A stretch of 64,000 nucleotides of DNA. Origin: Bacillota bacterium. GTDB taxonomy: Bacteria; Bacillota; JAAYKD01. Numbering within the stretch: the first letter of the stretch is position 1; each line of letters opens with the position of its first letter. The stretch is taken from assembly GCA_963666425.2 (NCBI GenBank), contig OY762825.2, forward strand, positions 1,856,001-1,920,000, written 5' to 3'. The notes beneath the pieces were generated by a model that worked only from the letters and a program-made list of their open reading frames with translations, was not told where the DNA came from and did not search any database. Both the position numbers and the translations under genes were made by a program. Positions 27,177-59,963 of the stretch are shown here, piece by piece.

Positions 27177-27304
27177 TGGTTTACTCCTTATTTTGAACTG
27201 GATATCACTCATTGATTATTCGTGCCGTTTGCTGCGGGTTCCTTCTCTCGGACGCTGCCACAGCCGGAATCAGCTTGATGACAAGCGGCAGCGTCAGCGA
27301 TGAA

Positions 27305-33588: not shown

Positions 33589-33607
33589 TTTATCATTCCT
33601 TCCTCTC

Positions 33608-34798: not shown

Positions 34799-35523
34799 AG
34801 TTTCACCCCGCTTTCCTGGTGAAGCAAAGCGGCTTCTTCTTTCGTAGGACCATCATAGACGATTTTCCCATCGGCCAGGCGAATGGTTCGTTCCGCGTGA
34901 GCCGCAATGCCATTGTCATGCGTGATGAGGACAACGGTGTTACCTTCTTCATGCAACTGCTGCAATAAACGCAGAACATCCATGCCTGTTTTTGAATCCA
35001 GTGCGCCGGTAGGTTCATCGGCCAGGATGACAGAAGGATTGCCGGCCAATGCGCGGGCGATCGAAACACGCTGCTGCTGTCCACCGGAAAGCTGGTTGGG
35101 TAAGTTCTTTAATTTATCTGTTAAGCCAACGCGCTCCAGAACGGTACGGGAACGTTCGATCCGCTCTCGCTTGCCCATCCCCGCATAAATCAAAGAAACC
35201 TCCACATTTTCTTCCACTGATAATCTTGGCAGAAGATTATATTGTTGAAAGATGAAACCGACCATCTTATTGCGAATTTCCGCCAGTGCGTTATCAGTCA
35301 ATTCTCCAACATCCTGCCCGCCCAGCAAATACTGACCTGCATCCGGTACATCCAGACAACCAATGATATTCATACAGGTGGATTTGCCCGAACCGGATTG
35401 ACCGACGATAGCGACGAATTCGCCTTTGTAAATTTGTAGGGAAATACCGTCAATCGCACGGACAACTGTGTCTCCCATGGTGTAAACTTTATAAACACGG
35501 CGGAATTCTATGAGGGGTGTCAT
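34795..35523 (-). CDS. MacB/LolD-type ABC transporter ATP-binding protein
   Basis: Walker A GQSGSGKS, signature LSGGQQQRV, Walker B ILADEPTGALD, H-loop ITHD. Confidence 0.95.
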   Translation of the reverse strand: MTPLIEFRRVYKVYTMGDTVVRAIDGISLQIYKGEFVAIVGQSGSGKSTCMNIIGCLDVPDAGQYLLGGQDVGELTDNALAEIRNKMVGFIFQQYNLLPRLSVEENVEVSLIYAGMGKRERIERSRTVLERVGLTDKLKNLPNQLSGGQQQRVSIARALAGNPSVILADEPTGALDSKTGMDVLRLLQQLHEEGNTVVLITHDNGIAAHAERTIRLADGKIVYDGPTKEEAALLHQESGVKL

Positions 35524-35529
35524 GCTGAT

Positions 35530-37308
35530 TTAACCTCCCGTTTTTGGAATTGTGCCGGTGCCGCCGCCTTGCGGTATGCCACCTTGTCCGCCTGTCTGAC
35601 CGCCGGTTTGTCCGCCGATCTGACCGCCTTGCTGTGTGCCAAAGGGAGTAACAACACTAGTAGTGATAGTCTCATTGGCAGTGACTGCGATAATATCACC
35701 TTCACTGAGACCAGAAGTGATTTCCACATAATCATCATTGCTCAGACCGACGGTTACATCCACATAAGCAAAACCTTCCGGAATGGCTGGGTTGCTGTTT
35801 TCCTGGGTAGATACACTATCGGTTTGCCTCAATACACGGTTTCCGCGAGCCACGGCACCGATCGGAACAGCCAAAACATCTTTGACCGATTCAATGACAA
35901 TTTCAGCTTCCACATTCATGCCGGGCAATAAACCTTCTGTATCAGTAATTTGAATGGTGATCGGATAGGTTGTGACACCGCTTGCAGTGGTACCGTTGAT
36001 GCTGACCTTGGTAATGGTGCCGATATAACGATGCCCTTCCGCCGCATCAGCAGTAATGGAAGCAGTTTGTCCCACAGATACTTTGGCAATGTCCAGTTCA
36101 TCGATATTCAGTGTCAGGGACAGGTAAGAGAGATCATAAATGACACACATGCTGGAGTTGGGAGAGACTTTATCGCCGCTTTTGGCGGTCTTATCGATAA
36201 TAGTCCCAGAAATAGGCGATTTTATGATGTAGGAATCCAGATTATCATTTTGATTTTCTAAGGCTAATTCGGCATCTTTTAAGGTATTGGCGGCATTTTC
36301 TATTTCGTCCTCTAAACTCTCACTGCTTAACGTAATCAATAATTGATCTTTAGCGACATAATCGCCTTCCATAGCATTGAGAGCAACGACTTCTCCGGCA
36401 AGCGCTGCGCTGATCACAGCTTCACTCTGGTAAGTGAAGCTGCCTTTGGCATTGCAGGCGATTTCGCCGATCATGGCGGTGGCACTGTGCGAGGTGGAAA
36501 GCGCGCCGGGATTGTTCACGTCAATGGTTACTTGACGAACCAGCATATTGCCGCTCAAAATTTGATCGACAGCGCTGATTTTACTGACGCTGCCATTCAA
36601 TATCTCATAAGAACCATCCAGAATTACGCTGGCAGCTTGCCCGATAGTAAATGTCTTGGCATCAGAAGAATTGAACGGCAAAGTCAGCTGCATTACATTG
36701 CTGTTGCGCAATTTTGCAATTGTCTGTCCTGCCTTTACATCGTCACCAACGTTCACCGAGAGTTCAATGACCGTGCCGCTGCTGGTGGCTTTGATCTTCA
36801 GGTTTTCCAGATTTTCCAGTTTTCTTTCGTAACTTTTACGGCTTTGACTGACGGAAAGCTCGGCACGTTCCAGGTTGGTGCTGACATCAGAGCTGTCAAT
36901 CTGGTAAAGAATCGTATTTTTCGCAATCACGTCACCTTCGCTGAAGTTAGAGGAAAGAACCTCTCCGCTGACTAAAGTAGTGACAGTATAAGAGTCAGCC
37001 GGCTGGAGGGAACCGCTGCCGCTTAATGATGAAACAATATCCTGCTTCGCAACCGTATAATTGGTGTAATTGGCAGCTGCGTTTTGCGTTTTTTGGGCCC
37101 GGGTTTTTAAAAATACCACAGTTCCAATCGCTGCGATCAATAGAATAACAATCAAAATGAGGGGCCATTTTTTCCTTTTCTTCTTCTTGGCAATGGCAGC
37201 TGGATTAAAATCCGTGAGATCACCACCAGCCGTTGTGGGATTAGCGCCATCCATTGCAACAGAGGCATCATTGGATGAGTTTTTTTGCTTTTTGTGGAAA
37301 ATGTTCAT
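35530..37308 (-). CDS. HlyD/MacA-family membrane fusion (adaptor) protein, extended form
   Basis: Basic patch plus N-terminal TM helix, four lipoyl half-motifs, IDELDIAKVxxGQ, LLPGMNV, VTVGLSND..VEITSGLSEGD, Gly/Gln-rich tail. Confidence 0.88.
   Translation of the reverse strand: MNIFHKKQKNSSNDASVAMDGANPTTAGGDLTDFNPAAIAKKKKRKKWPLILIVILLIAAIGTVVFLKTRAQKTQNAAANYTNYTVAKQDIVSSLSGSGSLQPADSYTVTTLVSGEVLSSNFSEGDVIAKNTILYQIDSSDVSTNLERAELSVSQSRKSYERKLENLENLKIKATSSGTVIELSVNVGDDVKAGQTIAKLRNSNVMQLTLPFNSSDAKTFTIGQAASVILDGSYEILNGSVSKISAVDQILSGNMLVRQVTIDVNNPGALSTSHSATAMIGEIACNAKGSFTYQSEAVISAALAGEVVALNAMEGDYVAKDQLLITLSSESLEDEIENAANTLKDAELALENQNDNLDSYIIKSPISGTIIDKTAKSGDKVSPNSSMCVIYDLSYLSLTLNIDELDIAKVSVGQTASITADAAEGHRYIGTITKVSINGTTASGVTTYPITIQITDTEGLLPGMNVEAEIVIESVKDVLAVPIGAVARGNRVLRQTDSVSTQENSNPAIPEGFAYVDVTVGLSNDDYVEITSGLSEGDIIAVTANETITTSVVTPFGTQQGGQIGGQTGGQTGGQGGIPQGGGTGTIPKTGG
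35556..35635 (-). repeat. GGQx tetrapeptide tandem repeat in the adaptor C-terminal tail
   Basis: Encodes QQGGQIGGQTGGQTGGQGGIPQGGG; degenerate 12-bp period. Confidence 0.7.
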
Positions 37309-40862: not shown

Positions 40863-41027
40863 TGAAAAGATTAAAATCCTTCTAATAAAAGAAGGAAACC
40901 TGCCGATACAGGAGAAATATTTACAGCAATAATTGGTAACCGCTCCTGATAAAAAAGCGAAAACCGAACACACTTTGAGAAGGATGGCTGGTTAATGATA
41001 CAGCCTGACATGGGGGGAGTAAGGAAA

Positions 41028-44000
41028 ATGAAGTGGTCAAAGCAAGTTATCGTCGCAATCTGGATGAGCTGCCTGTTGGGGGTGTTGCTGCCACTGTCAG
41101 GGGCAGTGTTTGCTGCTGTACCAACCCTGGCAATCACGGAATCAAATATCTTAAATGGTACGGTAACAGTGAGCGGAACTCTGAGCGAAGCTGGTTCAGG
41201 GCAGCTGCTGATCGCTGTTTATACGACCGACGGGAAAATGACGGATGTGAAAGATGTTACCTCGGATGCAGCTGACGGTAATTGGTCGATCACCTTGGAA
41301 TTTCCCGGTGCTTCTCTCCGCTGTGTCAAGGCGTTTCTCTTGGCAAATAGCCAGGAAGGTTATCACCCCTTACTGACTGCCGAAGAAATGATCACCTCCG
41401 GTATGCTGCTGACGATTGATACAGCCGGCAGCTATAGCGGCCAGTATGCCAATGTTACCATTACTGACGCTGTGGGAACCGCTCCCGTCACGCTGCTTGA
41501 TATGGATATCAGCGGCAATCTGACCATCGGAGGCGGTATCGCGCCTGAATCGCTAGGCTTATTGACCGCAGCGAGTCAAACGGTCTCTTTGACCGGCAGC
41601 ACGTCGGTGGCGGGAAAAGTTGTGCTGAATCGGCAGGGTGCAAGCGCACAGCCGCTGCAATTGATTCTGGAAGAACAGGCTCATATTCAATCCGCCGAGG
41701 TTTTAGGCAGCGCCGGTGCGGTGATTGCCAGTCTGACCGAAACCGAGAACACGATCAACAGCATCACTGCCGGGCAAAACCTGCAGCTGATCAATACCAA
41801 GGTTGGCCAATTGACCGCGCTGGCAGGCAATCTGCAGGCGCTGCAGGTAGGCTTATATCAGAGTGAAGTGCAGAATCTGACGGTCGCTCAAGCGGCCGGA
41901 GCGACGCCTGTTTCGGCAACGCTCGGAAAGCAGGTCAGTACTTTTGCTGCGGCGGAGGCTTTATTTGACGATTTACGTACAGCACGCATCGGTGCAGAAG
42001 AGACGCTTTACCTCAATGCTGAGAATAAAGTCAGCGTCATCGAGGGCAGTCAGGCGCTGCAGCTGCAACAAATATCAGAAGTCGGCAGTGTAACGATGAC
42101 CGCAGCATTACAGACCGATGCGGAAACCAGTGTTACTGCGTTAACGACCAATGCCGACGCCGTAATTGCGGGAAGACTGCAAAGCGCACAGATGAATGCC
42201 GCTTCGCTTGATTCGGCGCCGAATTTAACCTTGCTCGGCAGCGGCGTCACCACACTGAGCGGTAAAATTAAAAAACTGACCCTGGGCGGTGAGGCAACGG
42301 CGATCCTGACAGCCTCAACGAACGGCGAGAATGAAATTGGCAGCGTCGAAATGCAGACCAGCGAACCGGCCATGCAGTCACTAAGCCTGAACCTGCTTGC
42401 CTTATCGGCTTCGAGCGGTCCTTCTTTTACGGTCATGAGCGGTTCCGGTGTTGGCGGGATCCTGACCAGCGGCAGCGGTAATTTGGGTGGTATCTCTATT
42501 TTAAATGGCACCGGTTCCTTTGTGCCGATCCATCTTGGACCGGGAGTCTTTGCGCAGTTTGTGCAATTTGGCAACAATAGTGGTGGTCAGTTAACCTTGG
42601 GCGGGACAGATAATCAAAACGGTCAGTTGGGTGCACTGATTAATAATTCGCCGATGCCAAGTCAGCTTTTCCTGCCGGCAGGCAGCAGTCAAAGCAATTT
42701 GATCAGCAATGTTTTTGACAGCAACATTTCCTCCGGACTGCAGATGCGAATCGGGGAAACGGCTCCCGTAGTACCGGCTTCAAACAACGATCTCGCTTTT
42801 GTTGGCATGAATATTGTAGAACCACCGAGAAAAACAACCTACAAAGTCAATGAAACGATGGATTATAGCGGCATGATGGTCGAATTGATCTATCTTCCCG
42901 GTGCAAGCAGCGTAATCCGTACTCCCATCGTGCGCTATGAAGAAGTGAAGGGCAACCAAAACTTTCTGACCGATCTGCCCTTGCTGAATAGTGCAGGCAG
43001 CTATACGCTGCAGGTGACACACCGGGAAAGCCAACAGAGTGTAGATTTCCTCATCAATGTGGTCAATGCCTATGAAGTAGAGAAAATCCGAATCGTTCAA
43101 TACCCGGCGAAATTGACCTATCAAATTGGCGAGCCATTAGATCTAGGCGGTGGAGTTCTGGCTGTTACCTATCAAGGGATAACGGGAGAACAAATTGTGC
43201 CGATGATGACTGACAATCAATTGACGGACGGTCTCGTGGTAATCGGGTTCAATTCAACAAATCCATCCCCACAAAGAGTTCAGCTCATCTTTGGCAGAAG
43301 AGCGATCGTGGATCTGGATGTCGTGGTGGGGGGCAAATCCACTCTGGAAAACTATCGCACCGCTGCGTTAGCTTTCATAACAGCTTCGGAAGCAAATGCA
43401 GGGCTCTATAGCAATCCTGAATTAACAACTTATAATAATGTATTGAGTCTTATGAAGGGCTTAATCACCCAAGCGGAAACAACGGATAGTATTTCTTATG
43501 CCTGGGAGATGATTGAAAAGGTCATCCGTCCTCTGAAAACCAATGAGGAAAAATTGCAGCTGCAATTGAGCGCCGCGAGGGAGGCCGGTTACATAGAAAT
43601 AGAGGAGTACTGGCCAATCAATCCGGCTACTCAAATGCCGTACAGCAGCGCAGACTATTCCTCTGCCATGCTCTACAAAATAAGAAATATTCGCCTGATA
43701 GGGAGCCGTTCCGTCAGCGATGCTTTGACATTGGCAGAAATCAACGGTGAGCTCGGTCTGATCCGGCAAACCAAAGCAAAGATCGATGCGATTCCACGCA
43801 TCAGCAGCAGTTTGGATATTGTGTTGGCAGCGGTCAGCGACTTCAGCCTGACCATCAAAACCGGCTTAAGCTTCGATGAAAAAATACAGCTGGTCAAAGA
43901 AAATGTGTCGCGTCAAATGATCAGCGCCGGTGGAAATCCGCTCTGGAGTGTACTTGTTACCGATTTAGGCAGCGGCAGTAATACCGTGCAAATTGCAGAT

Positions 44001-47000
44001 GGCAGCGGGCATTTGAGCAGTGTGAAAACCATTACGGTATCCCTGACAGAAATCGAAACCAGAGGTTCGTTGGTGATAACACTGGCGAATCACTTGCAGG
44101 GTAAATTTAGTTTCTTGCCTTTGAATGCAGATGCTGTGATTGCGGAAACGGAGAATTTCGTCGAAACGATCAACATGACGGCGGAACAAAAGACGGCCTT
44201 TGCCTTCTTATCTTATTACCATCTCCTCAATGGCAGGGGTCAAATCGGCAATCAACAGATTATGGACCCGAATGCAACGATCAACCGAGCCGATTTCATC
44301 TTCCTGCTGACCGCCCTGGAAGAGGCTATGGGTGTGCGCTTACCGGAAACTGTGACGATTGCTGCAATCAGCGATCTGAGCGCTGAGAATCCTCTCTACC
44401 AGAAGGCACTTCATCTGGCCAGAGCCGGCGTCATCACGCTGGGAACAGGGGAAACGCTCCATCCCAATGACAGCTTGGTCAGCGCGGCGAGTGATGAGTG
44501 CCTAAGCGCAGTCGACAATTTGATCGCAGCATTATCGTCTGTCATCAGCTCAGCGGAGACTTCTGAGCAATTCCAGACCGCACTTACGGACACCTTGATT
44601 CAGAAAATCGTAACGGCAGGCAATTTTGTAATCGATACGAATGATCCTTTAAACAAACAATTATTCGTGACTGCCGGCACTACGCTGACGGTCGCAGCGG
44701 ACAGCGTTTTTACAATTGACACCGCTCAATGTACCGTCATGGGGACAATGATCAACGAGGGAGCAATTCACGTCACCGTCAACGGCAGCTTATCCTTTAT
44801 GGCCGGTTCTGTTTTGACCAACAACAACAGCGTAGATGTTTACGGTCGGGCGGATTTCCAGAGCGGCTCCACCATCAACGGCAGCAATACCCGTATCACT
44901 TATCATCATAATGCCAATCTGCTCGATGCGGCGCAGCAAATTTACGCACAACTGAAAGACGGATATCGCCTGGATCTGCCGTCACAGACAGACATCAATG
45001 CTTACGCCGCGTTTTATACCGATTGGAGCAGCATCACTGCCGAGCCTACTGAAAACATTATGGCGCTGGCCTTCTTGCTGAAGAATCAACTGATCGTTGG
45101 CGTACCCGGTTTGGGTGACGACGTTCAGAAAATATCCATCAAACCCTATGCGTCTCTCAGCCGCGCGGAGACCGCGATGCTGCTGATCAGGCTGGAGACC
45201 GTCCTGATCGAAAAGGCAACGATTACCGGCTTGGATCAAACGGTAGTTCTGAATCCTGTTTTCAATGATTTAAACGGCGAAGAGGCGTACTATGACGCTG
45301 TGCTAAGATTAGCCAAAGCCGGTGTGGTTCAGGGCGATACGCAAGGCAATTTCAACCCGAATGCTGCTATGGATGCCACCTGGTATACTTGGGGCAGTCC
45401 TTTAAGTGATCTGGTGCGTCGTTTCGTGACGGCTCTGGGCCAGATTGCTTCCGAACAGCAAAGCTTTACCGTTCTGCGCAGTGAAACACAGGTGATTGAA
45501 AACAGAAGATTCACCAACAAGGTCAGTATTGTCTGCGGCACGCCGGTCAGCACGGATGATTATGGCGGTTCGATTCGCTTCAGCAATTGCACGTTTGCTG
45601 CCGGTCTGACCGCCGAAGTAGGCTTGATCAGATATGACATCGATTTAGGCATGGCCGCTGTAGTCGGAGGGATTCAGGTCAACCGCAGCCCGGATAACAA
45701 GAAATTCCAACAGAATGTGAGTGTGAATCTGAATAATGTGGCGGTTGGAACTGAAATCAGCTCCGATGCCGTCGCTGCAGTCAACTGCGGTATCGCAGCA
45801 GGCAGCTTTGTGATCAATGGGGTCACCGTCAGCGGTGCAGCTGATTTAGGTGAGCAAGGTTCTTTCGGTGCCCATCTGAAATGGGAATGCTACGCTCCGC
45901 ATGCCGAATCGTATCAAGGCGATCACAGCGAATGCAGCGGCAACCAATTTACGGCGCTTGCTTTCTATGATGCGGTAGAGAAGGTGGAAGTGAGTGCAGG
46001 TGCAGCCTTCCAGAATTATGAAATGTGGAACAACCGTGACGATATTTCCCTGAACTTCCCGGCTGAGGGTGTGACTGTCAGCATGGATCGTTTGCGGATC
46101 AACAATCGCAATCAGGAATTTAATAAAACTCTGATCCTGAGCGGGCAAGTACTGGGAGATGTCGAGATCAGTGGTAAGGTCGATCTATCTGCTTTGCTCA
46201 ATCCAAGCCACCAAATTTATCTGGCTGCCTGGAACAACGGCAATCAGATTGCCATCGGCAGTCAGACGGTCACCGTCAGCGGCCAAAGCGATTACAAAAC
46301 GTCCGTTCAAGCGGAGAACGGCGCGACAGTCATTGTCGAACAATCCAGGCAGGATGTTGTGGTGAATGACGCAGCGGACAACGCATTTAGTCTTGGCGGT
46401 CCGCACATCTTTGGCGATGTAGGCAATTATGGGATTTACCTGATGGGTGCTCCTCTGCCGGCCGGTAGTTATTTATTGGAACAGCGCACAATGAATGCAG
46501 AACAAGAGCCGATCTGGACGACCATCAACTATAGAATGGATTCCATATTCGCAGAAAACAAGACTCATTTGATTCCGGATCCGGCAACCCCGATCACCGA
46601 TCCGTCTGCCGTGCGCTTGACTGTGCATTGGCAACCTGATGCAGATACCGAGATCACGATCGTTTGGCCGGCTCTCTATTATAAACAAGCGGCAAGCAAC
46701 CGCATTGATCTGGCGAAACGCCTCTATGCTGCGCTGGGCGAGGGATATGGTCTGGCAGCTATCACCGGTGGTACGGCTGAAGTGGAAACACTCCTGAGTG
46801 GTTTTGAAGAATGGCCGCAATTAGCGAATGAGGGTGAAGGTGCCGAAGCATTGGCCTTCCTGGTGAAGAACGGCATTCTCAACCCAACCGCTGGCACAAA
46901 TCTGCTGCCGTATAATGATCTGACGCGTTCGGAAACCGCCGTGATTCTCTATCAGGCGATCATCGCGATGAATCGATTAATCGGCTTAGATCAATCGGTC

Positions 47001-50000
47001 AATATCAGTTTCCACGATGTGATAGCCGAGCAGACGCCAAACTTTATGGCCATCATGACCTTAGCCAAAGCCGGTATCGTCAGCGGGGACAATCAAGGCA
47101 ATTTCTATCCCAATGAGAGAATGCTGTCCAATCAAATCGGCGAACTGATCACACGTTTTGTCAATGCTTTGGGTGAAGTTGCGCGTACGGACTCTGCCAT
47201 CACAAGCTTTACGGTTTCTGCTGCAGCAAGCCAACCGATCCGGAATAAGAACTTCCTGCAGACGGTTACCATTGACTGCGTATCCATTGCAGCGCAGGTG
47301 GAAAACGGTTGGGGCGGCAGGTTGACGTTTGAAAACTGTAATTTCAGCCGAGGGTTGATCCTCATTTTAAGCGAAGCCTCTTATGGTGTGGAACTGGGTG
47401 GCGCGGCGGTGGCGGAAGGCATTCAAATTGTGCCGCAAAGCAATACCGTACCCAACCGGTTCAACAACCAACTGCGTCTGAACTTATCCGGCTTAGCTGA
47501 TGCAGCGGTCGTCACATCAACCGTCGGTGCTTCGGTCAACAGCCAGGTGATGGGTGGACAATTCACACTGAACCATGTTCTCGTGCGGAGCACGGCGGAT
47601 CTGGGTGAAGCCAATTATTTTGGTGCTTATCTGAGATGGGAGTGCTACGATCAGCACATAGAGCAGTATCAAGGCGACCACAGTGAATGTGACCCCTCTT
47701 ATCAGTTCACTACGCTGGGGACGGATCGCTCGGTTGCTTCTCTGACCGTCGATAAAACAGCTGAATTCCAACGCTACGAATTCAGTAATAGTCTGAATGA
47801 TGTGCAGTTGCTTTTCGATCCTGACGGGGTCCCGGTGACCATGGATCGCATGCGCATCATAGGCTGCAATACCAACGGAGAATTAAATACTGTTTTGGTC
47901 AGCGGTCTGCTGCAGGGCAGCGTGGAAGCGGAAGGCAGAGTTGATCTGACGAATCTCGCTGTTGCATCGGGTGCTGCGCTCACCGCAGCGACTTGGTCGG
48001 AGAATACGGAGATCAATTTGGGCAGCCATGCCATTACCCTAGTCGGCAATGGTGGTAAAACTGTTGGCATTGCCGCTGTGAATGGCGCAACTGTCTGCTT
48101 CGAACAAGCGGGGCAGAAGGCAAATATCACCAACAGCGAAGCCGCGCTTTTTGAGATCAATTATGCGGAAGTGCTGGAAAGTGAAACCGGTTATTGGCTT
48201 ACGCTCAACACGGGCAACGGCTCCGATTACAGCTATCGCTTGGAACAAGGCTCCTATGATCAACAGACACAGCAAGAGAGCTGGTCTCCGCTTTCCTTTA
48301 CAACCGAAGTCTATTCCGGTTCCATTCATACCGATCTGATGCCTTCGGCAGAGACTCCCATCACGAATCCCAATCAGGTGCGGCTGATCGTCACCTGGAC
48401 GCAGGGCAGCGATACAATTACGGTTGTCTGGCAGAGAGTCTTCTATCAAATGCCAAAAGCAAAGATCAGCGATGCCGCGAAACAAATCTATCAACTCTTC
48501 CAGACCGATTACAAATTATTGACCGTCAATGATGATGACCTGGCGCGCTACGCTGCCGACTACAGTGACTGGACGATGATGAATGAGGATGGGGAGACTC
48601 GGGCAGCGGTGGCCTTCCTGCTGAAAAACGGTATCCTGAGCGGAACCGCAGCGGAAGATAACTTAACCTATTTGAACCCCTATCAGGAAATGACCCGTGC
48701 TGAGTTCGCTAAGCAGCTGTTTGCTCTGGTCAATGCGCTGAGCGGCAACGGTACTTTACCGGGTGGTTTGGCGGTGCTTTCTCCCAATCTGACCTTCAGC
48801 GATGTAGTAAACGAGGCTCCTTATTATGAGGCAGTCATGTCGATGGCCAAAGCCGGTATCCTCTCCGGTGACAATGGCAGGTTCTGCCCGGATGAACTCG
48901 TCCTTCGAGACGATCTGAACGGAATTTTAAAAGGATTGCAGACTGCGGTTGGCCCGGTGGTTTCCACACAGAATTTATTCACTGTCAATCGAAATCAAGA
49001 GCAAACAGTAGAGAATAAGATCTTCAGTCCGAATACACCGGTGGTCATTACCTCCGCAGCGCGGGAAGGCAGTGATGCCTGGGGCGGGCAGATTACCTTT
49101 GTTAACTGCCAATTCAATGGCGGCTTGCAGGCTATGCTGGGCAATGTGCACTATAATGTTAATTTCACCGGCACAACAACGGTGAAAGATAATCGTATTG
49201 ATGTCAGCGCGTCGGTTTTGAACGCCAATTACAAATTTGACGGCAGTGTCAACGTACAATTCAGCGGTCTGCCGGAATCAGTTGGAGTTGTTTCCAGCGT
49301 GGCAGCCAGTGTTGCTTCCAATCTGGGCGGAGGCAGTGTGACACTGAATGGCATTAAAACAACCGGTGCCGACCAAATCGGTACAACGGAATGGTTTACC
49401 GCCAATCTCTATTGGGAGTGCAACGGCTATCATACAGCGGATTATGCCGGCAATCATGCTGAATGTATCAAAAATCCCAGAGATGTCATCCCTGTGCCGG
49501 CAGATCATTATTTGACGTATGCCATCAATGGCAAAGTCAAGAGCGTCACCGTGCTTCCAAGCGAAACAACACCTCTGCAGACGGAAATTTGCAGCTTCAG
49601 GGTGGCGGAGGTTCTGGATGATGTGAGCTTGGCCTTAGGCTCTCTGCAGCCTTCCCTGGGTTTCTTCAATCTAAATGGAAATACAAGCGGCTTATTAACG
49701 GTGAGCGGCAATGTAATCGGAGAGACCGTTGTCTGCGGCAAAGTGGATATCACCGCGCTGACGCATCCCGGTTACGCGATCCTGATCGGTGCCTGGCAGG
49801 ATAATACTGCGGTAGTCATTGGCAGTCAAACCGTCACCGTGGCGGGTTATAACAGCAAACCGGTCATCATTGCCGCCTTGTCTGGCGCGGTAGTCAAGTT
49901 GGAGCAAGCCAGTCAGGCAGTCAAAATCAATGCCGCAGACCCGGACGGCGGTTTCCAGCCGGGGATCCCGCAGGTCTTTGACACCGACACCGGTTTTGGC

Positions 50001-53000
50001 ATTAACCTCGGTAAATTATATACCTTACCGGAATACAGCTTCGAGATATGGCAGAATTATTATGACAATGATTCGATGCAGGAGATCAGAGCGCAGGTTT
50101 CTTTCACTAGCGAGACATCTCCGGATCAGCTCAGCACCTATTTGCTGAGCAACGAAATCAGAAATCCTTATCAACTGGAACTGACGGTTCGTCGGACTGC
50201 ACCCAGCGGAACCATCTCGGTGATTTGGCAGCAATTGGATTATAAACAAGCCGCGGCGACGCTCAGCCAAGCTGCGAAGCTGCTCTGCCAGGCATTCCGG
50301 CAGGATTATCGTTTGGCCGAGCCTACTGTCGACGAGCTGACTGCCTATGCGGCTTATGCCGATTGGTCTCTGATGGCAGCGGATGCGGATGCTCAGGCCG
50401 CCATGGCTTTCCTGCTCTGCAATCACGTCATCACGGCAACAGCAGGCAGCGGTGAGGATGCGAATAAATTCTTTGTGGATCCTAACCGCAGCCTCACTCG
50501 CAGCGATGTGGCGGTTCTGGTTTACAATTTAAGCGAACAGCTGAAAGCAGTCGGGATTTTACCGAATGGCTTGCCTCAGGATGTTGCACCGAACAGTTCT
50601 TTCTCTGATGTGACTGCGGCGGATGCCTTCTATACTGCGGTGATGACCTTGGCCAAAGCCGGATTGCTCAGCGGTGATAACGGACAATTCTACCCCACCG
50701 GAGAAGTATCTGCTGACGATGTTGGGCGGCTGATTAACGCTCTGCAGTCAATCATCGGTCCGATTTCCTCAGGCCAGACGAATTTTATAGTATCGAAAAA
50801 TCAAACCCAAACGGTGCAGAGCAAAACCTTCAGCGAAGCGGTCACCGTCACTTGTGAACCGGGGCAAAGCGGGGACTGGGGCGGAGAAATTCGTTTCACC
50901 GATTGCAGCTTTAACGGTGGTATGACGGTGAAATTGGGCGATATCAGCTATGCAGTCAATTTAGATGGAGTCACGCTGCTGAATCAGACGATCCATGCCG
51001 AGCTGGATGAAAGGATTCAACCTGCACCGGTTCAGCTCAATTCACAGCTGCAGATTCAAATCAATGGTGTTGCAACGGGCACGATCATCAACTCCACCGT
51101 GAATGTCAATGTATCCGCTGCGGCCGACTGCACCGGCTTTCAGCTGAATGGCGTGGAAATGACGAAAGCCGCTGCAGCCCAGGCGAGCGATCCATTTGGC
51201 GCCCAGATCATGTGGGAGTGCAACGGGGATCATGCCGATGGTTATAACGGCAACCATGCCGATTGTATCAAGGACCGCAACAATCCAGGTTCCGGATTGG
51301 CTGAGCATTATCTTTCATTGCTGCTCTGGGGGAAGACCGGTTCTGCAACAGTAATTAATCCAGAGAACGGTCAGTATGCTATTTACCGTTATGAGATGAC
51401 GCAGGATTGCACGTGCGCATCCTTATCTTTGGGCAACATCACACCAGCAATCGGTTACCTTTTCCTGACCAGCAGCACGACAGCCAATTGTGCAGTCAGC
51501 GGAACTGTGACAGGGGATCTGGTGGTGATCGGTAACTATGATATCTTGGCCGTTATTGTTACACGTTATGTCCTGCTCAGCGCCTCCTGGGCAAGAGATA
51601 GTCTGGTCAGTATTGGTGCAAAAGAAGTTACGATCACAAATAACGGTAATACAACCATCGGAATCAACGCGAGTGATGGCGCCAGAATCAATGTAGAGCA
51701 ACCGGATCAATACTTTGTAATCAACCAGGCTGAACCGGGCAGCGGTTTTGCCATCGGCATACCGCATGTCTTTGGTGATGCAGGGAATTATGGCGTCTAT
51801 GTTGGCACTGCCAACGCTACGGAATATACTTATACGCTGGAACAGATCCTTTATGATGAGAATCATCCGGATGGCTATGGGCAACCGCTCATGGTCACAC
51901 CAGAGTATTTCGCAGACAAGACCCACCTGAATCCCAGTGTCTCGACGCCAATTACGGATCCGAATAATGTCCGGCTGACGGTGACCTGGACCAAGAACAA
52001 TCAGGTGATCATGGTCGTCTACGCCTGGCTCAATTATCTGCCTCCTACGATCGGCCGCGTCGATGCGGCAATGAAGATTTATGCAGCATTCCAAGACGGC
52101 TATGATCTGGCAGCTCCCACTTCGGGAGAAATCAGTAACTACAGCCTGAGTTACAGCGTTGATTGGGCAGCAATGTCAGCCAATGAACAAGCAGCAATGG
52201 CATTCCTCTTAAAGCATGGCTTGATCAGCGGAGCAGCGAATGAAATCAAACCCTATAATATGCTGACACGGGCGGAAATTGCGGTTATCCTGGATCAGCT
52301 CGATACACTGATCGCATATCACTTAGTTCGTACAAAGACCGCACCCGCTTTTACCGATTTAACAGGAAATGAAGCTTACTATACCGCTGTGATCAAAATG
52401 GTCGAAACAGGTGTCATCACTGATTATGAAGGAACTAGGTTCGCTCCGGATAATGGAGTCCCTGAGGAACTAATGCAAGAGTACCTGATGAATTTTGTCA
52501 GTCTAATTCCATTTGTGCAGCTCGAATCCACGCTTGGCAGTTTTGTGGCCTCGTCTGATTTTAAGCAGGTGATCAACAATAAGAACTTTATCACGCCGGT
52601 TACGATTACTTGCGATACGCTATATGATCCTGCAGTGGAATACAACTGGGGTGGGAATATCGTTTTCAACAACTGCTCTTTCTCCGAAGGTTTGACGCTG
52701 ATTCTCGACACCATCAGTTTTGACGTGGATCTGCGCGGTGCCAATGTTCCCGGTGGGATCAACCTGGTGGCAGGGTCTTCGCTCGATCCTCTGGATGGGG
52801 ATAAATCTATTACACTCTATAGTTTAGCTAACGGCACGACGGTGACTTCCGCAGTCAACTGCATGATCGAAAATTACTGTGTCGGTGATTGGTATACCTT
52901 GAATTTGGTGAAAGTGCAGAGCATCCCCCCGACAGGCAATGAGATGAATTACCATTTTGGCAGCAACATCTATTGGAATTGCGGTGCGGATCATCCTAAG

Positions 53001-53621
53001 GATTACGTGGGAGACCATAGTGAGTGCGCGACAGCAGACCGGTTTATGGCTTTCGCCATTTTTGGCAATGTCCAAACGCTGACAGTTCCTGCCACCGCTG
53101 CTTTCCAACGCTATGAAATGTGGAATAGTCCAGCCAATGTCAACTTGGTTTTCGAAACACCGGGTATTGCGGTTCCTTATTTGGTGATTATCGGTGGTGA
53201 CAATGAAAATTGCCTTAGTTCTTTTGTGCCGAGCGGTATTGTTGATTCGGATGTGATTATCATCAACAATGTCAATGCGGCCAATTTGACAGTGACAGAG
53301 GGACACATCATCTATTATCCTGATTTGGGCGGTGCAGCCGATAAGACTGCTTTGATCAGTGCGCTGGAGACAGCAGGAACGAATTTTTCTTTGGCGATGG
53401 TAAGCGAAACCGGCGCGGATATTCTAACTACTTTCTCATGGGTGACTCCATCGGCCTTTGCAGCTTATCAAATTGCGGTGCAGCAAGCTCAGTCTGTTGC
53501 CGAAAACGGCAGCGCCACGCAAGCAGAGGTCGACGCTGCGGTCAGCGCCTTGAATTTGGCAACCGATAGTTTTAATGACTCAAAACAGCAGGGCACTATG
53601 GTCATGATCCCTCCGGTCTAG
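41028..53621 (+). CDS. Giant secreted SLH-repeat surface protein (~4,200 aa) with Big_3-like Ig domains, five ~590-aa repeats and a C-terminal FIVAR-like helical domain
   Basis: Signal peptide MKWSKQ...AVFA after a GGGAG RBS; PxKxTYxxGExLDxxG Ig domains; repeated SLH motifs (LTRAE.A, F.DV...YY.AV..LAKAGI.SGD.G.F.P); DKTAL...ATQAEVDAAV..L FIVAR-like end. Confidence 0.9.
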   Translation: MKWSKQVIVAIWMSCLLGVLLPLSGAVFAAVPTLAITESNILNGTVTVSGTLSEAGSGQLLIAVYTTDGKMTDVKDVTSDAADGNWSITLEFPGASLRCVKAFLLANSQEGYHPLLTAEEMITSGMLLTIDTAGSYSGQYANVTITDAVGTAPVTLLDMDISGNLTIGGGIAPESLGLLTAASQTVSLTGSTSVAGKVVLNRQGASAQPLQLILEEQAHIQSAEVLGSAGAVIASLTETENTINSITAGQNLQLINTKVGQLTALAGNLQALQVGLYQSEVQNLTVAQAAGATPVSATLGKQVSTFAAAEALFDDLRTARIGAEETLYLNAENKVSVIEGSQALQLQQISEVGSVTMTAALQTDAETSVTALTTNADAVIAGRLQSAQMNAASLDSAPNLTLLGSGVTTLSGKIKKLTLGGEATAILTASTNGENEIGSVEMQTSEPAMQSLSLNLLALSASSGPSFTVMSGSGVGGILTSGSGNLGGISILNGTGSFVPIHLGPGVFAQFVQFGNNSGGQLTLGGTDNQNGQLGALINNSPMPSQLFLPAGSSQSNLISNVFDSNISSGLQMRIGETAPVVPASNNDLAFVGMNIVEPPRKTTYKVNETMDYSGMMVELIYLPGASSVIRTPIVRYEEVKGNQNFLTDLPLLNSAGSYTLQVTHRESQQSVDFLINVVNAYEVEKIRIVQYPAKLTYQIGEPLDLGGGVLAVTYQGITGEQIVPMMTDNQLTDGLVVIGFNSTNPSPQRVQLIFGRRAIVDLDVVVGGKSTLENYRTAALAFITASEANAGLYSNPELTTYNNVLSLMKGLITQAETTDSISYAWEMIEKVIRPLKTNEEKLQLQLSAAREAGYIEIEEYWPINPATQMPYSSADYSSAMLYKIRNIRLIGSRSVSDALTLAEINGELGLIRQTKAKIDAIPRISSSLDIVLAAVSDFSLTIKTGLSFDEKIQLVKENVSRQMISAGGNPLWSVLVTDLGSGSNTVQIADGSGHLSSVKTITVSLTEIETRGSLVITLANHLQGKFSFLPLNADAVIAETENFVETINMTAEQKTAFAFLSYYHLLNGRGQIGNQQIMDPNATINRADFIFLLTALEEAMGVRLPETVTIAAISDLSAENPLYQKALHLARAGVITLGTGETLHPNDSLVSAASDECLSAVDNLIAALSSVISSAETSEQFQTALTDTLIQKIVTAGNFVIDTNDPLNKQLFVTAGTTLTVAADSVFTIDTAQCTVMGTMINEGAIHVTVNGSLSFMAGSVLTNNNSVDVYGRADFQSGSTINGSNTRITYHHNANLLDAAQQIYAQLKDGYRLDLPSQTDINAYAAFYTDWSSITAEPTENIMALAFLLKNQLIVGVPGLGDDVQKISIKPYASLSRAETAMLLIRLETVLIEKATITGLDQTVVLNPVFNDLNGEEAYYDAVLRLAKAGVVQGDTQGNFNPNAAMDATWYTWGSPLSDLVRRFVTALGQIASEQQSFTVLRSETQVIENRRFTNKVSIVCGTPVSTDDYGGSIRFSNCTFAAGLTAEVGLIRYDIDLGMAAVVGGIQVNRSPDNKKFQQNVSVNLNNVAVGTEISSDAVAAVNCGIAAGSFVINGVTVSGAADLGEQGSFGAHLKWECYAPHAESYQGDHSECSGNQFTALAFYDAVEKVEVSAGAAFQNYEMWNNRDDISLNFPAEGVTVSMDRLRINNRNQEFNKTLILSGQVLGDVEISGKVDLSALLNPSHQIYLAAWNNGNQIAIGSQTVTVSGQSDYKTSVQAENGATVIVEQSRQDVVVNDAADNAFSLGGPHIFGDVGNYGIYLMGAPLPAGSYLLEQRTMNAEQEPIWTTINYRMDSIFAENKTHLIPDPATPITDPSAVRLTVHWQPDADTEITIVWPALYYKQAASNRIDLAKRLYAALGEGYGLAAITGGTAEVETLLSGFEEWPQLANEGEGAEALAFLVKNGILNPTAGTNLLPYNDLTRSETAVILYQAIIAMNRLIGLDQSVNISFHDVIAEQTPNFMAIMTLAKAGIVSGDNQGNFYPNERMLSNQIGELITRFVNALGEVARTDSAITSFTVSAAASQPIRNKNFLQTVTIDCVSIAAQVENGWGGRLTFENCNFSRGLILILSEASYGVELGGAAVAEGIQIVPQSNTVPNRFNNQLRLNLSGLADAAVVTSTVGASVNSQVMGGQFTLNHVLVRSTADLGEANYFGAYLRWECYDQHIEQYQGDHSECDPSYQFTTLGTDRSVASLTVDKTAEFQRYEFSNSLNDVQLLFDPDGVPVTMDRMRIIGCNTNGELNTVLVSGLLQGSVEAEGRVDLTNLAVASGAALTAATWSENTEINLGSHAITLVGNGGKTVGIAAVNGATVCFEQAGQKANITNSEAALFEINYAEVLESETGYWLTLNTGNGSDYSYRLEQGSYDQQTQQESWSPLSFTTEVYSGSIHTDLMPSAETPITNPNQVRLIVTWTQGSDTITVVWQRVFYQMPKAKISDAAKQIYQLFQTDYKLLTVNDDDLARYAADYSDWTMMNEDGETRAAVAFLLKNGILSGTAAEDNLTYLNPYQEMTRAEFAKQLFALVNALSGNGTLPGGLAVLSPNLTFSDVVNEAPYYEAVMSMAKAGILSGDNGRFCPDELVLRDDLNGILKGLQTAVGPVVSTQNLFTVNRNQEQTVENKIFSPNTPVVITSAAREGSDAWGGQITFVNCQFNGGLQAMLGNVHYNVNFTGTTTVKDNRIDVSASVLNANYKFDGSVNVQFSGLPESVGVVSSVAASVASNLGGGSVTLNGIKTTGADQIGTTEWFTANLYWECNGYHTADYAGNHAECIKNPRDVIPVPADHYLTYAINGKVKSVTVLPSETTPLQTEICSFRVAEVLDDVSLALGSLQPSLGFFNLNGNTSGLLTVSGNVIGETVVCGKVDITALTHPGYAILIGAWQDNTAVVIGSQTVTVAGYNSKPVIIAALSGAVVKLEQASQAVKINAADPDGGFQPGIPQVFDTDTGFGINLGKLYTLPEYSFEIWQNYYDNDSMQEIRAQVSFTSETSPDQLSTYLLSNEIRNPYQLELTVRRTAPSGTISVIWQQLDYKQAAATLSQAAKLLCQAFRQDYRLAEPTVDELTAYAAYADWSLMAADADAQAAMAFLLCNHVITATAGSGEDANKFFVDPNRSLTRSDVAVLVYNLSEQLKAVGILPNGLPQDVAPNSSFSDVTAADAFYTAVMTLAKAGLLSGDNGQFYPTGEVSADDVGRLINALQSIIGPISSGQTNFIVSKNQTQTVQSKTFSEAVTVTCEPGQSGDWGGEIRFTDCSFNGGMTVKLGDISYAVNLDGVTLLNQTIHAELDERIQPAPVQLNSQLQIQINGVATGTIINSTVNVNVSAAADCTGFQLNGVEMTKAAAAQASDPFGAQIMWECNGDHADGYNGNHADCIKDRNNPGSGLAEHYLSLLLWGKTGSATVINPENGQYAIYRYEMTQDCTCASLSLGNITPAIGYLFLTSSTTANCAVSGTVTGDLVVIGNYDILAVIVTRYVLLSASWARDSLVSIGAKEVTITNNGNTTIGINASDGARINVEQPDQYFVINQAEPGSGFAIGIPHVFGDAGNYGVYVGTANATEYTYTLEQILYDENHPDGYGQPLMVTPEYFADKTHLNPSVSTPITDPNNVRLTVTWTKNNQVIMVVYAWLNYLPPTIGRVDAAMKIYAAFQDGYDLAAPTSGEISNYSLSYSVDWAAMSANEQAAMAFLLKHGLISGAANEIKPYNMLTRAEIAVILDQLDTLIAYHLVRTKTAPAFTDLTGNEAYYTAVIKMVETGVITDYEGTRFAPDNGVPEELMQEYLMNFVSLIPFVQLESTLGSFVASSDFKQVINNKNFITPVTITCDTLYDPAVEYNWGGNIVFNNCSFSEGLTLILDTISFDVDLRGANVPGGINLVAGSSLDPLDGDKSITLYSLANGTTVTSAVNCMIENYCVGDWYTLNLVKVQSIPPTGNEMNYHFGSNIYWNCGADHPKDYVGDHSECATADRFMAFAIFGNVQTLTVPATAAFQRYEMWNSPANVNLVFETPGIAVPYLVIIGGDNENCLSSFVPSGIVDSDVIIINNVNAANLTVTEGHIIYYPDLGGAADKTALISALETAGTNFSLAMVSETGADILTTFSWVTPSAFAAYQIAVQQAQSVAENGSATQAEVDAAVSALNLATDSFNDSKQQGTMVMIPPV
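44910..53330 (+). repeat. Five diverged ~1.76-1.80-kb coding repeats (SLH cluster + beta domains + CHHC motif)
   Basis: Conserved W-x-C motif starts at 45882, 47637, 49413, 51213 and 52974 (spacings 1755, 1776, 1800, 1761 bp). The last copy is shortened. Confidence 0.9.
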
Positions 53622-57661: not shown

Positions 57662-59963
57662 TTATTGCTGCAAGGCGCGGCGGGCCAGATAGATTTTCTC
57701 CGGTGTGATCGGCAGTTCCCGAATCCAGACGCCGGCAGCGTTGTGCACCGCGTGCGCGATGGCGGGCGGCGGTGTGGTGATCACAATCTCACCGATGGAT
57801 TTGGCGCCGAAAGGTCCGGAATGCTCATAACTGCTCTCAAAAGCGACCTGCAGTTGGCAGACATCCAGGCGGGAAGGAATCTTGTACTGCATCAGCGAGC
57901 TGTTCATAATATTCCCTTTGGCACCAAACTGCACGTCTTCATACATCGCCATGCCGATGCCCTGTACCAGACCGCCTTCAGCCTGCACGCGGGCGAGGTT
58001 GGGGTTGATCAATGTACCGCAGTCGATTACAGCCACATAATTGACCAGCTCATATTGGCAGGTTTTTTGATCCAGCTCGATCTCGGCAATGCCAACCATA
58101 TAAGGCGGCGGTGAAATTGGTGAGGCATGCGCTTCTGTAGCAAAAAGCGCGGTCTGGTTGTTGCACTGGGCGTAATAGGATAGCTCCTGCAGCGTCACGA
58201 TTTTTCCACTGGCTAAATCGCGAACCTGCCGGCCTTCGAAGACCAGCTGCTCTTCCGTGGCTGCCAGTTGTTCGGCGGCTAGTTTCAGCATGCGCTGCTT
58301 TAAGCGAATCGCAGGCTTTTACAACCGCCATGCCGGTGATGTAGGTGGTAGAAGAGGCATAGGAGCCGCTGTCGTAAGGAGAAGTATCGGTATCGACGCC
58401 GTCGACAATGATATCTTCCAGAGCGCATTCCAAAGATTCTGCCGCAATCTGAGCTAAAATGGTGTCGCAGCCGGTTCCCATATCGGTGGCGCCGATGGCC
58501 ATTGTATAAAATCCTTCGTCATTGAGCTTGATTGAGACAGTGCCGGTATCGACCGAAGCAATACCGGAGCCCTGCATGGCAAGGGAAATACCCAAAGCGC
58601 GCACTTTGCCATTGCCCAGATCACGCACGGGATATTTTGCGTCCCAACCGATCATTGTTTTGGCTTTGGCAAGGCAGCGGTCCAAGGCGCAAGAGGTGGC
58701 GGTTTCGCCGTAATAAGCCGGCATGAATTGGCCTTCGCGGACCATATTCATTTCGCGAATTTTTGCCGCATCCATGCCCAAGCGATCAGCCAGGTCGTTG
58801 ATGACCGATTCCAGAGCGAACGTGCCTTGGGTTGCGCCGTAACCACGGTAGGCGCCGGAAGCGATTTGATTGGTATAGACGACTTGATAGGTGAAACGGA
58901 AGGCTTCCAGGCTGCCGTAGAGAGAAATTGATTTATGACCGGATAAGCCGACCGTGGTGGGTCCATGTTCACCATAAGCGCCGGAGTTGGAGAGCGTATT
59001 GAGATCGATCGCCCGAATCTTGCCATCCCGATTGGCGCCAACCCGCACCTTAATTTCTGTTTCGTGCCGTGGTGAAGAAGCGATCTGCGATTCATAACGC
59101 GTGTAGACGATTTTAGCCGGCTTTTTGGTCTTCATCGTGACCAAAGCTGGGTACATTTCACAGACAGCCGATTGCTTGGCGCCAAAACCACCACCGATGC
59201 GCGGTTTGATCACCCGCAGGCGTGATTTGGCGATTTCCAGCGCTGTGGCTAAGATTCGGCGGACATGGAAGGGAATTTGGGTGGAGCTGACGACATTCAA
59301 ACGTCCGAATGCATCCAAGAAAGTGTAGCTGCGGAACGTTTCCATCATGACTTGTTGATTCTGTTTGGTGTGAAAGGTCGCTTCTGAGACCAGATCGCAG
59401 TCGGCCAAGACTGCTTCTACATCCTGCCAATCTTCAATCCCGCTGCAGACCAGGTTGCGTTTTTGATCGGCGCCGACCGGAACGAGCGTATGCCAATTCT
59501 CTTCCGGATGCACCAGCATCGCATGATCTTTGGCCAAACGGAAATCCAGAATTGGCTCCAAAACTTCGTAGTCTACTTTGATTTTCTGCATGGCGGCCAT
59601 CACCTGCTGTTCCGTATCACCGGCAACCAGAGCGACAGCATCACCGACAAAACGGACATGATCATCCAGAATACGGCGGTCATAGGGGCTGAATTCCGGA
59701 TAAGTTTGTCCTGCAATGGTGAAGCGGGTCATGGGAGCGTCTTCATGGGTTAGGACACACGCAATTCCCGGCATCGACAGCGCTTCTGCTTTGTCGACTG
59801 AGCGGATCAGAGCGTTGGCATGCGGAGAGCGCAGCACTTTCACAATCAGACAATGGCTGGGAGCCAGATCATCGGTATAGACCGGCTGACCGGTGACTAA
59901 CGCCATGGCGTCTTTTTTGATCGGTGAATGATTGACAATCTTCCAGCTCGAGGGGTCGCTCAT
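57662..59963 (-). pseudogene. Xanthine dehydrogenase family molybdopterin-binding subunit, split by a +1 frameshift
   Basis: RSPHA, IGGGFGAK, YRGYG, DMGTG, SYASST in the first ORF; QAEGG..QGIG, YKIP, GPFGAKSIGE in the second. Removing one base at 58299-58301 joins them as KACDSLKQRMLKLAAE. Confidence 0.85.

Follow-up and report, generated by a model that had tools for sequence, protein, structure and literature searches.

What a short cysteine- and histidine-bearing motif does on a protein of the cell surface, five times over and at regular intervals, is the question raised by a single open reading frame in the stretch of 64,000 nucleotides analyzed here (the window). An original prediction had picked out the translated product, P0001, for five copies of such a motif, and a regular-expression search of the translation recovered W.C...H.......H..C exactly five times, with the same peptides (starting at residues 1630, 2215, 2807, 3407 and 3994; form W-x-C-x3-H-x3-Y-x-G-[DN]-H-x2-C, n = 5), all in frame within that one open reading frame (Table 1). 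The looser pattern C-x3-H-x7-H-x2-C gave no further match in six frames of the whole window. From composition, 3.7e-5 motif matches per protein are expected by chance, and 2000 shuffles of P0001 yielded one match in total; the five copies are non-independent draws, because they lie in homologous repeats of about 590 residues, and conservation is the meaningful statistic. Seven of the 23 invariant columns in the five-core alignment fall inside the 18-residue motif (hypergeometric P = 1.5e-5), and the spacing proved as exact as had been claimed, in repeats only 24 to 36% identical pairwise. From sequence comparison with relatives, we give about an even chance to the reading in which the Cys-His-His-Cys (CHHC) loop acts structurally, as a Cys2His2 metal staple that probably holds zinc.

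Table 1. Positions in the window of the giant SLH protein P0001 and its parts.
Feature	Coordinates	Strand	Basis or remark
Giant SLH protein P0001, putatively exported, five repeats	40995..53621	+	ORF, 4208 aa
Signal-peptide-like N-terminus, aa 1-41	40995..41117	+	Basic stretch, hydrophobic core, AVFA-AV; from translation by eye
SLH domain ahead of core 1	45261..45371	+	E = 1.5e-10, 41.3 bits, cut-off 20.8
Repeat core 1, aa 1490-1896	45462..46682	+	All-beta N-subdomain and Ig-like part
F-x-N-C-x-F signature, repeat 1, third conserved Cys	45579..45596	+	Alignment
CHHC loop 1, WECYAPHAESYQGDHSEC	45882..45935	+	Regex match
SLH domain ahead of core 2	47049..47120	+	E = 4.1e-10
Repeat core 2, aa 2071-2484	47205..48446	+	Five-core alignment
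CHHC loop 2, WECYDQHIEQYQGDHSEC	47637..47690	+	Regex match
SLH domain ahead of core 3	48792..48914	+	E = 6.5e-11
Repeat core 3, aa 2661-3083	48975..50243	+	Five-core alignment
CHHC loop 3, WECNGYHTADYAGNHAEC	49413..49466	+	Regex match
SLH domain ahead of core 4	50598..50711	+	E = 2.7e-7
Repeat core 4, aa 3263-3681	50781..52037	+	Five-core alignment
CHHC loop 4, WECNGDHADGYNGNHADC	51213..51266	+	Regex match
SLH domain ahead of core 5	52350..52457	+	E = 2e-11, 2 stretches
Repeat core 5, aa 3849-4118	52539..53348	+	Ends after N-subdomain, then weak FIVAR-like tail
CHHC loop 5, WNCGADHPKDYVGDHSEC	52974..53027	+	Regex match

P0001 reads like an extracellular protein, on the basis of its SLH domains and a Sec-signal-like N-terminus (a pattern of n-, h- and c-regions). 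Its earlier description as an SLH protein was upheld by Pfam, with PF00395 matching at E = 1e-40 (137.9 bits, 6 stretches) and above the gathering score in all five linkers ahead of the repeat cores. In these domains, in the signal-peptide-like start and in its large size, the protein resembles SLH-anchored S-layer and wall proteins. In relatives such as P0005, P0007, P0008 and P0015 the SLH domains cluster near the N-terminus, as is usual (3 to 4 stretches, the best at residues 30–229), whereas P0001 has one SLH domain ahead of each of its five cores and may thus be fastened to the wall at several sites. A 4165-residue protein in ENA-derived data, P0049, is 98% identical to P0001, and this twin was the sole match in a protein homologue search with residues 2071–2484. 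The neighbors of the open reading frame encode peptidases, RNase H, RsgA and an ABC exporter, and relatives of this RsgA that share about 55% identity with it suggest that the source organism is an anaerobe. Cysteine is scarce in the exported proteins of the window (0.22% in P0002; 4 residues in the first 1330 of P0001), and most of its soluble cytoplasmic enzymes contain about 1 to 3.6%. This scarcity agrees with the exclusion of cysteine that PMC2823432 reports in Firmicutes; it implies that cysteines retained on exported proteins are under specific selection, and thiolate metal sites are uncommon on such proteins because cysteine is largely excluded from them.

Each motif lies inside a repeat core of about 415 residues. 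At the DNA level the repeats resemble one another only in short stretches (64–78% identity) at conserved protein motifs; the five repeats are therefore old duplications and no assembly artefact. The FIVAR-like tail behind core 5 (E = 3.8e-5) stays under the Pfam cut-off. A second invariant signature, GG-x3-F-x2-C-x-F-x2-G, stands about 100 residues upstream of each motif and had escaped the original prediction; it is a more widespread hallmark of the family than the CHHC motif. Its F-x-N-C-x-F portion begins at residues 1529, 2112, 2702, 3301 and 3891, the equivalents in repeats 2 to 5 starting at nucleotides 47328, 49098, 50895 and 52665. AlphaFold2 modeled the whole of core 2 with a pLDDT of 91.8 and a pTM of 0.90, and the first 231 residues of core 1 with 88.7 and 0.88. 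These confident models predict an all-beta domain and, behind it, an Ig-like part; the motif falls between two strands, in an irregular loop where pLDDT drops to 78–84 (in core 2, the loop follows strand 139–147, with pLDDT 78 at residues 151–160).

Sequence searches of Pfam, NCBIfam and the PDB with the repeat core gave no significant match (Pfam returned nothing at E ≤ 10 beyond chance-level matches, and a core profile had 0 matches at E ≤ 10 in the PDB), and Foldseek found nothing at E ≤ 0.001 against the PDB, with either the whole core or the N-subdomain, or against BFVD. The best E values were 1.6e-3 for the whole core and 0.55 for the N-subdomain (TM ≤ 0.26) against the PDB, and 0.053 in BFVD. 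As modeled, each repeat contains an undescribed all-beta, solenoid-like domain. Beta-helix and beta-solenoid surface modules are likewise all-beta, with many short strands, and occur in large SLH-bearing or secreted proteins; the weak Foldseek list is dominated by pectate-lyase-like adhesive domains, the tapirin C-terminal domain, a two-partner-secretion haemolysin domain and the CBM54 of ChiW, and Atlas scores of 0.84–0.87 towards Beta_helix, NosD and WcaM are weak leads of the same kind. However, none of these modules has a significant sequence or fold match to the core, right-handed parallel beta-helix proteins entering the N-subdomain list only at the values given above, and we know of no beta-helix or beta-solenoid surface family with a CHHC loop. 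The domain as a whole probably serves adhesion or structure in giant proteins tethered to the wall. Among the matches listed for literature on giant S-layer homology and beta-solenoid proteins, none dealt with this family in the parts of the texts that were accessible, and no paper was found that joins an SLH domain with Cys2His2.

Variation of the ligands was scored in 43 of 64 copies of the N-subdomain, after 21 that were unalignable at the anchor strand had been left out. The canonical CHHC set stands in 28 of the 43, and another 6 retain four Cys/His ligands in shifted or swapped form, giving any four ligands in 34; all four are absent in 9, and partial loss (Cys only or His only) was seen in none. 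The ligands are thus kept as a set, with substitutions only to other ligand residues, and the loss of His in homologues, which the original prediction had named as evidence against itself, did not appear: His was never lost while the Cys stayed (0/43). Variants include the replacement of the last Cys by His in P0007, a C-H-C-C set in P0016, an H-x3-C form in P0005 and P0034, and a shifted first His in P0011 and P0013. The half-sites C-x3-H and [DN]-H-x2-C persist in relatives around an intervening loop of 4 to 14 residues, each His keeping its distance from its Cys (+4 and −3) despite the changing loop length. P0003 has orthologous repeats that differ at the positions separating the ligands, but C, H, H and C are never altered. 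The loop is rich in D and E, and its mid-loop position is a conserved aromatic (Y, F or W, with F or W in many relatives). A domain tree built without the loop columns is weakly resolved, with 20 of 40 inner branches open. Copies that lack the motif are scattered over it, and parsimony counts 7 changes, at least 2 of them forced by well-supported branches; the copies being related, these counts are not of independent events.

Fixed half-sites on a loop of varying length are to be expected of ligand pairs and not of a plain disulfide loop, and the swaps in P0007 and P0016 keep metal ligands and would break a disulfide, which favors a metal. Between the metal knuckle and the disulfide-closed loop that the original prediction left side by side, comparison with relatives thus leans towards the former. 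The irregular 14-residue loop would leave the all-beta domain with its base closed by the Cys and His of C-x3-H and the His and Cys of [DN]-H-x2-C. These four side chains would bind a single metal ion tetrahedrally, most likely Zn(II) acquired extracellularly once the Sec route has exported the protein. By stapling the loop the ion would stabilize the domain, while the mid-loop aromatic would pack the loop onto the solenoid. In this Firmicute, with exported proteins that are poor in cysteine and probably meet a reducing environment, the metal would take the part that a disulfide plays elsewhere. Against a staple, the site is dispensable for the fold, since the 9 alignable copies noted above lack it, as do most of the 21 unalignable ones.

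A short loop with a Cys at each end has the classic layout of a disulfide-closed loop, which also counts against a metal staple. On such a reading, which we consider possible but unlikely, a disulfide would close the 14-residue surface loop, and its His, acidic and aromatic residues would form a surface that binds a glycan, a partner protein or a cation held weakly, or a pH sensor. The modeled position between two strands, the acidic character with a conserved aromatic and the fact that Cys losses are always paired are consistent with it. However, P0007 retains its first Cys while its last is exchanged for His, the set in P0016 includes three Cys, no copy loses its His while keeping its Cys, and each His holds its fixed distance from its Cys as the loop changes length. 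The third conserved Cys, in F-x-N-C-x-F, is moreover unpaired in every repeat, and the exported proteins of the window are depleted in cysteine; under the scheme of PMC2823432 this suggests that the organism does not routinely form disulfides outside the cytoplasm. A metal centre with a function beyond structure, holding Cu(I/II), Fe(II), Ni or Co for wall metal buffering or detoxification, for redox sensing or, in the manner of zinc-dependent adhesion modules, for metal-dependent self-association of the giant protein, seems to us unlikelier still. Two thiolates and two imidazoles would suit Cu and Ni too, the site lies exposed on a loop and recurs along a protein tethered to the wall, and acidic residues surround it. 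Yet with four protein ligands in one short loop no coordination position would stay open, a protein with five sites in 4208 residues (one per roughly 840) would make a poor metal sponge, and sites about 590 residues apart would not form an electron relay; genes for metal transport, chaperones or redox functions are absent beside the open reading frame, and many relatives have a working domain that lacks the site. Of the roles first proposed for the motif, that of a structural clasp fits these considerations, and metal capture and redox sensing do not.

We consider improbable, more so than the functional centre, that the Cys2His2 centre is a switch, in which oxidation of the thiolates or loss of the metal would loosen the loop and alter the rigidity, partner binding or wall attachment of a giant protein fixed to the wall by an SLH domain ahead of each repeat, in a core representing a new extracellular beta-solenoid family with no relative in Pfam, NCBIfam, the PDB or BFVD; if true, a structural protein of anaerobic Firmicutes would house a redox or metal sensor exposed at the surface. 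Attachment of a cofactor, haem c-like or a Rieske-type [2Fe-2S] cluster, or a covalent Cys-Tyr or Cys-His cross-link is disfavored and highly improbable. Two Cys and two His are indeed found in Rieske centres and the loop has a conserved Tyr, but the Rieske spacing, C-x-H ... C-x2-H, differs from that of the motif, and the mid-loop aromatic varies too much among relatives for a Tyr-specific cross-link to be likely. The statement that the motif is not the CxxCH of haem c holds: neither CxxCH nor CxxC occurs in the 4208 residues. No twin arginine (RR) occurs in the first 45 residues either. These absences speak against both haem c and an Fe-S cluster exported by Tat, and a c-type haem site and a Rieske-type cluster were both rejected. 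A 4208-residue Sec substrate cannot carry a pre-assembled cluster, as a Tat substrate can.

The structural staple we favor has a partial counterpart in the eukaryotic CHHC zinc finger (U11-48K/TRM13/GTSF1), with consensus C-P-x4-H-x9-H-x3-C (PMC2562017), which has been shown to bind one Zn per domain. Both have the ligand order Cys-His-His-Cys in one short stretch; the eukaryotic spacing, however, is C-x5-H-x9-H-x3-C as against C-x3-H-x7-H-x2-C in P0001, which lacks the Pro after the first Cys, and the finger is a self-folding, cytosolic or nuclear RNA-binding mini-domain, unlike a loop within a predicted extracellular all-beta bacterial domain of about 230 residues. Membership in this family (zf-U11-48K) was rejected, the consensus being absent and Pfam giving no match at E ≤ 1. 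The pairs C-x3-H of CCCH fingers and H-x2-3-C of RING fingers are zinc ligand pairs. These classical half-sites share short Cys/His spacings with the P0001 loop, but combination, order and fold context differ, and the likeness is a resemblance only. No described zinc motif spaced C-x3-H-x7-H-x2-C was found, and a 32-column motif profile had 0 matches at E ≤ 10 in the PDB.

The family is rare, a profile search of 1,835,955,588 representative proteins returning 46 matches, all of them large surface proteins; the only named carriers, with names looked up for 10 of the 46, are a Negativicutes metagenome-assembled genome (MAG) and uncultured Eubacteriales. An alignment-based homologue search favoring longer proteins returned P0003 together with two SLH proteins that lack the motif. 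Allowing for loop length, C-x3-H-x(3-14)-H-x2-C occurs 30 times in 18 of 47 proteins (the 46 matches and P0001), 27 times about 100 residues downstream of the FxNCxF signature; it was found nowhere else in 86,098 residues of family proteins and had 0 matches in 51,091 unrelated residues. A degenerate DNA pattern of the strict motif matched one stretch in 185,579 species genomes, in a Desulfobacterales MAG, where our arithmetic predicts about 2 chance matches from the 39 bits of the pattern. That stretch was rejected as chance, the site lying on the + strand and the only overlapping open reading frame of at least 80 residues on the − strand; the same collection did not return the window's own five sites, so that the window's genome is absent or masked there. 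If the staple reading holds, the all-or-none Cys2His2 loop would show how anaerobes stabilize extracellular modules without disulfides, and a new domain family would be defined by the FxNCxF signature with an optional CHHC loop. Such a family could serve to annotate large “hypothetical” surface proteins, which are common in metagenome-assembled Clostridia and Negativicutes, although the practical gain would be modest unless the CHHC site proves functional. Elsewhere in their chains, relatives bear Pectate_lyase_5, Big_2/3 and LRR_5 domains.

The SLH protein P0001 holds exactly five matches to W-x-C-x3-H-x7-H-x2-C (hereafter CHHC, two Cys and two His once per repeat core), with the peptides and positions of the original prediction, and the pattern is absent from the rest of the window in all six frames. 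Composition gives 3.7e-5 expected chance matches per protein, and 2000 shuffles yielded one match in total; the motif is a real, non-random observation. Apart from SLH (E = 1e-40, six stretches), no Pfam family scored above cut-off in P0001, whose N terminus by reading resembles a Sec signal peptide (basic stretch, hydrophobic core, AVFA/AV). The motifs lie in repeats of ~590 aa (pairwise identity 24-36%), each composed of an SLH-bearing linker (above the 20.8-bit Pfam cut-off in five of five) and a core of ~415 aa. Alignment of the cores gave 23 invariant columns, of which seven (W, C, H, Y, G, H, C) fall inside the 18-residue motif (hypergeometric P = 1.5e-5 for enrichment); a second invariant block, GG-x3-F-x2-C-x-F-x2-G, lies ~100 residues upstream. 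DNA-level likeness among repeats is confined to short stretches at conserved motifs (64-78% identity). The duplications are old, and conservation of the motif among repeats reflects selection. The placement of one SLH domain before every core suggests that P0001 is tethered to the wall at several points. In the relatives P0005, P0007, P0008 and P0015 the SLH domains are instead clustered near the N terminus, as is usual.

Table. Positions of features in the window (nucleotides unless marked aa)
Feature	Position	Strand	Basis or detail
P0001, SLH ORF of 4208 aa	40995..53621	+	ORF call and translation
Repeat cores 1-5 of P0001	aa 1490-1896, 2071-2484, 2661-3083, 3263-3681, 3849-4118		fifth truncated
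SLH domains of repeats	45261-52457	+	one ahead of each of five cores
FxNCxF signature, unpaired conserved Cys	45579-45596; equivalents start 47328, 49098, 50895, 52665	+	
CHHC motifs	start 45882, 47637, 49413, 51213, 52974	+	pattern match
P0002, second giant ORF, 8303 aa	1-24933	+	from ATG at 22; open at window's 5' end
Streptomycin adenylyltransferase family match	within 26298-27979	-	PF04439, E = 1.6e-109
Chloramphenicol acetyltransferase family match	within 26298-27979	-	PF00302, E = 1.8e-77
ORF of 1147 aa	28014-31457	-	Peptidase_M14 (zinc carboxypeptidase) match
SLH protein of 627 aa and adjoining exporter operon	31705-37308	-	MacB/FtsX-ABC-HlyD type
Molybdopterin subunit, xanthine-dehydrogenase type	57662-59963 (ORFs 58050-59963 and 57662-58291)	-	MoCoBD_2 profile positions 1-137 and 132-282

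An AlphaFold2 model of core 2 (20-row alignment; mean pLDDT 91.8, pTM 0.90) is all-beta with many short strands, and a second, independent prediction for the initial 231 residues of core 1 (15 rows) reached pLDDT 88.7 and pTM 0.88. In both models CHHC sits in an irregular loop between a long strand and the next one, with pLDDT of 78-84 at the motif loop against 95-98 in the core. Pfam searches with each core (E ≤ 10) returned chance-level matches only, NCBIfam gave no relevant match, and PDB sequences gave 0 matches at E ≤ 10 to either the core profile or a 32-column motif profile. With the whole core, the top Foldseek match in the PDB was ChiW (5gzt; E = 1.6e-3), the other rows being Ig-like with ~100-130 columns matched. 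The N-subdomain (the first ~230 aa of the core) reached only E = 0.55 (TM ≤ 0.26) against the PDB and E = 0.053 against BFVD; its weak Foldseek list held beta-helix/solenoid proteins (MinC C-terminal domain, TBCC, tapirin, PL3 pectate lyase, haemolysin A), and Beta_helix/NosD/WcaM clusters in the protein atlas (scores 0.84-0.87) are mere leads. Because of this list and the all-beta models, we describe the N-subdomain as a predicted beta-solenoid-like fold with no detectable relative, and assign it to no family. The domain is undescribed. Text searches of the open-access literature for SLH proteins bearing a Cys2His2 site came back empty and, among the matches listed in wider searches, none dealt with this domain family.

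The domain family is also rare. A profile of the five cores scored against 1,835,955,588 representative proteins gave 46 matches at E ≤ 1e-3, 40 at E ≤ 1e-10 and 12 at E ≤ 1e-30. Two of the ten looked up had informative names: P0003 (MCE5197131.1, [quoted passage not shown]) and P0010 (SBV92117.1, [quoted passage not shown]). A Pfam scan of 24 relatives found SLH in 11, Big_2/Big_3 in five, Pectate_lyase_5 in four, LRR_5 in one and nothing in nine, with no enzyme domains; the relatives are large, adhesin-like surface proteins. Among named organisms none is close to that of the window, whose RsgA is 52-56% identical to the best named matches (Sedimentibacter, Tissierella, Herbinix, Brassicibacter), which we take to be anaerobic Clostridia. 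A search of 185,579 species genomes with the strict motif pattern missed the five sites of the window itself, so the window's genome is absent from or masked in that set.

In 47 proteins (the 46 matches plus P0001, with P0002 left out; 86,098 residues), the generalized pattern C-x3-H-x(3-14)-H-x2-C occurred 30 times in 18 proteins, as against 0 matches in 51,091 unrelated residues. FxNCxF lay within 200 residues upstream in 27 of the 30, and the pattern occurred nowhere else in these proteins. This signature, which includes the third conserved, unpaired Cys of every repeat, is the family's most widespread hallmark (70 regex matches in the 47 proteins, CHHC-less copies included). Half-site spacings were constant, while the His-to-His stretch ranged from 4 residues (P0012) to 14 (P0008). 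A purpose-built HMM extracted 64 N-subdomain copies, of which 21 were unalignable at the strand before the motif and were dropped, although by regex or reading at least two of these bear the site (P0032, canonical; second P0016 copy, a C-H-C-C variant). Among the 43 kept, 28 were canonical and nine had none of the four ligands; six retained four Cys/His ligands, shifted or substituted (H-x3-C in P0005 and P0034; first His shifted in P0011 and P0013; C-x3-H-x7-H-x2-H, with His for the last Cys, in P0007; C-x3-H-x6-C-x-C in P0016). No copy kept the Cys pair alone or the His pair alone. On a domain tree built from columns outside the CHHC loop, motif-less copies were scattered (7 parsimony changes, at least two forced by well-supported branches), the tree being poorly resolved (20 of 40 inner branches open, many long branches). 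In P0003, four repeats orthologous to the window's differed between the ligands, never at C, H, H or C.

Because the Cys-to-His (+4) and His-to-Cys (+3) steps are fixed despite varying loop length, loss is all-or-none and substitutions only exchange Cys and His, the ligand pattern points to a cooperative four-ligand unit, which is how metal sites behave in evolution. Of the two options originally proposed, a metal knuckle or a disulfide-closed loop presenting the His, the relatives thus best support the former, which is unproven. A disulfide loop retains a low probability in our view, because such loops typically have a Cys at each end and model confidence (pLDDT) falls there. A plain disulfide loop should tolerate loss of the His and could not withstand loss of a single Cys. 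The Cys-poor setting agrees with a metal site: the window's exported proteins are poor in Cys (0.22% in P0002; four Cys in P0001 aa 1-1330), most of its soluble cytoplasmic enzymes contain ~1-3.6%, and cysteine exclusion in Firmicutes, as described in PMC2823432, is in agreement.

We infer both a bound metal and its identity; a putative structural site, most likely for Zn(II), seems to us an even call. Its role is taken as structural since a short loop that supplies four protein ligands has no coordination site to spare, and Zn(II) is the favored ion for a Sec-exported protein, which must pick up its metal outside. Among the suggested roles of metal capture, redox sensing and structural clasp, the clasp is the most plausible. 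A functional Cu, Fe or Ni site is chemically possible but unlikely, slightly more so than a disulfide; it is disfavored in that coordination is saturated, site density is low, no metal or redox genes lie nearby and the site is dispensable in relatives. Haem c or a Rieske-type cofactor is very improbable and was rejected: P0001 lacks both CxxCH and CxxC, its start has no twin arginine, and the spacing is wrong. In the available part of its description (PMC2562017), the eukaryotic CHHC zinc finger (C-P-x4-H-x9-H-x3-C, binding one zinc) is the nearest named motif and shares the ligand order, but spacing, fold context, compartment and kingdom differ; given these differences and no Pfam match, membership was rejected. 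What emerges is an unproven candidate for a structural Cys2His2-type site in a rare, undescribed extracellular domain of beta-solenoid-like fold.

Elsewhere in the window, P0002 shows by eye a long helical region and numerous repeated segments that resemble Ig/FN3 and CARDB domains, and is presumably another surface protein. The two genes matching antibiotic-modifying enzyme families adjoin each other, and the Peptidase_M14 ORF is unusually rich in His (3.66%). The molybdopterin subunit is apparently split; division of MoCoBD_2 over two overlapping ORFs suggests a frameshift or sequencing error.
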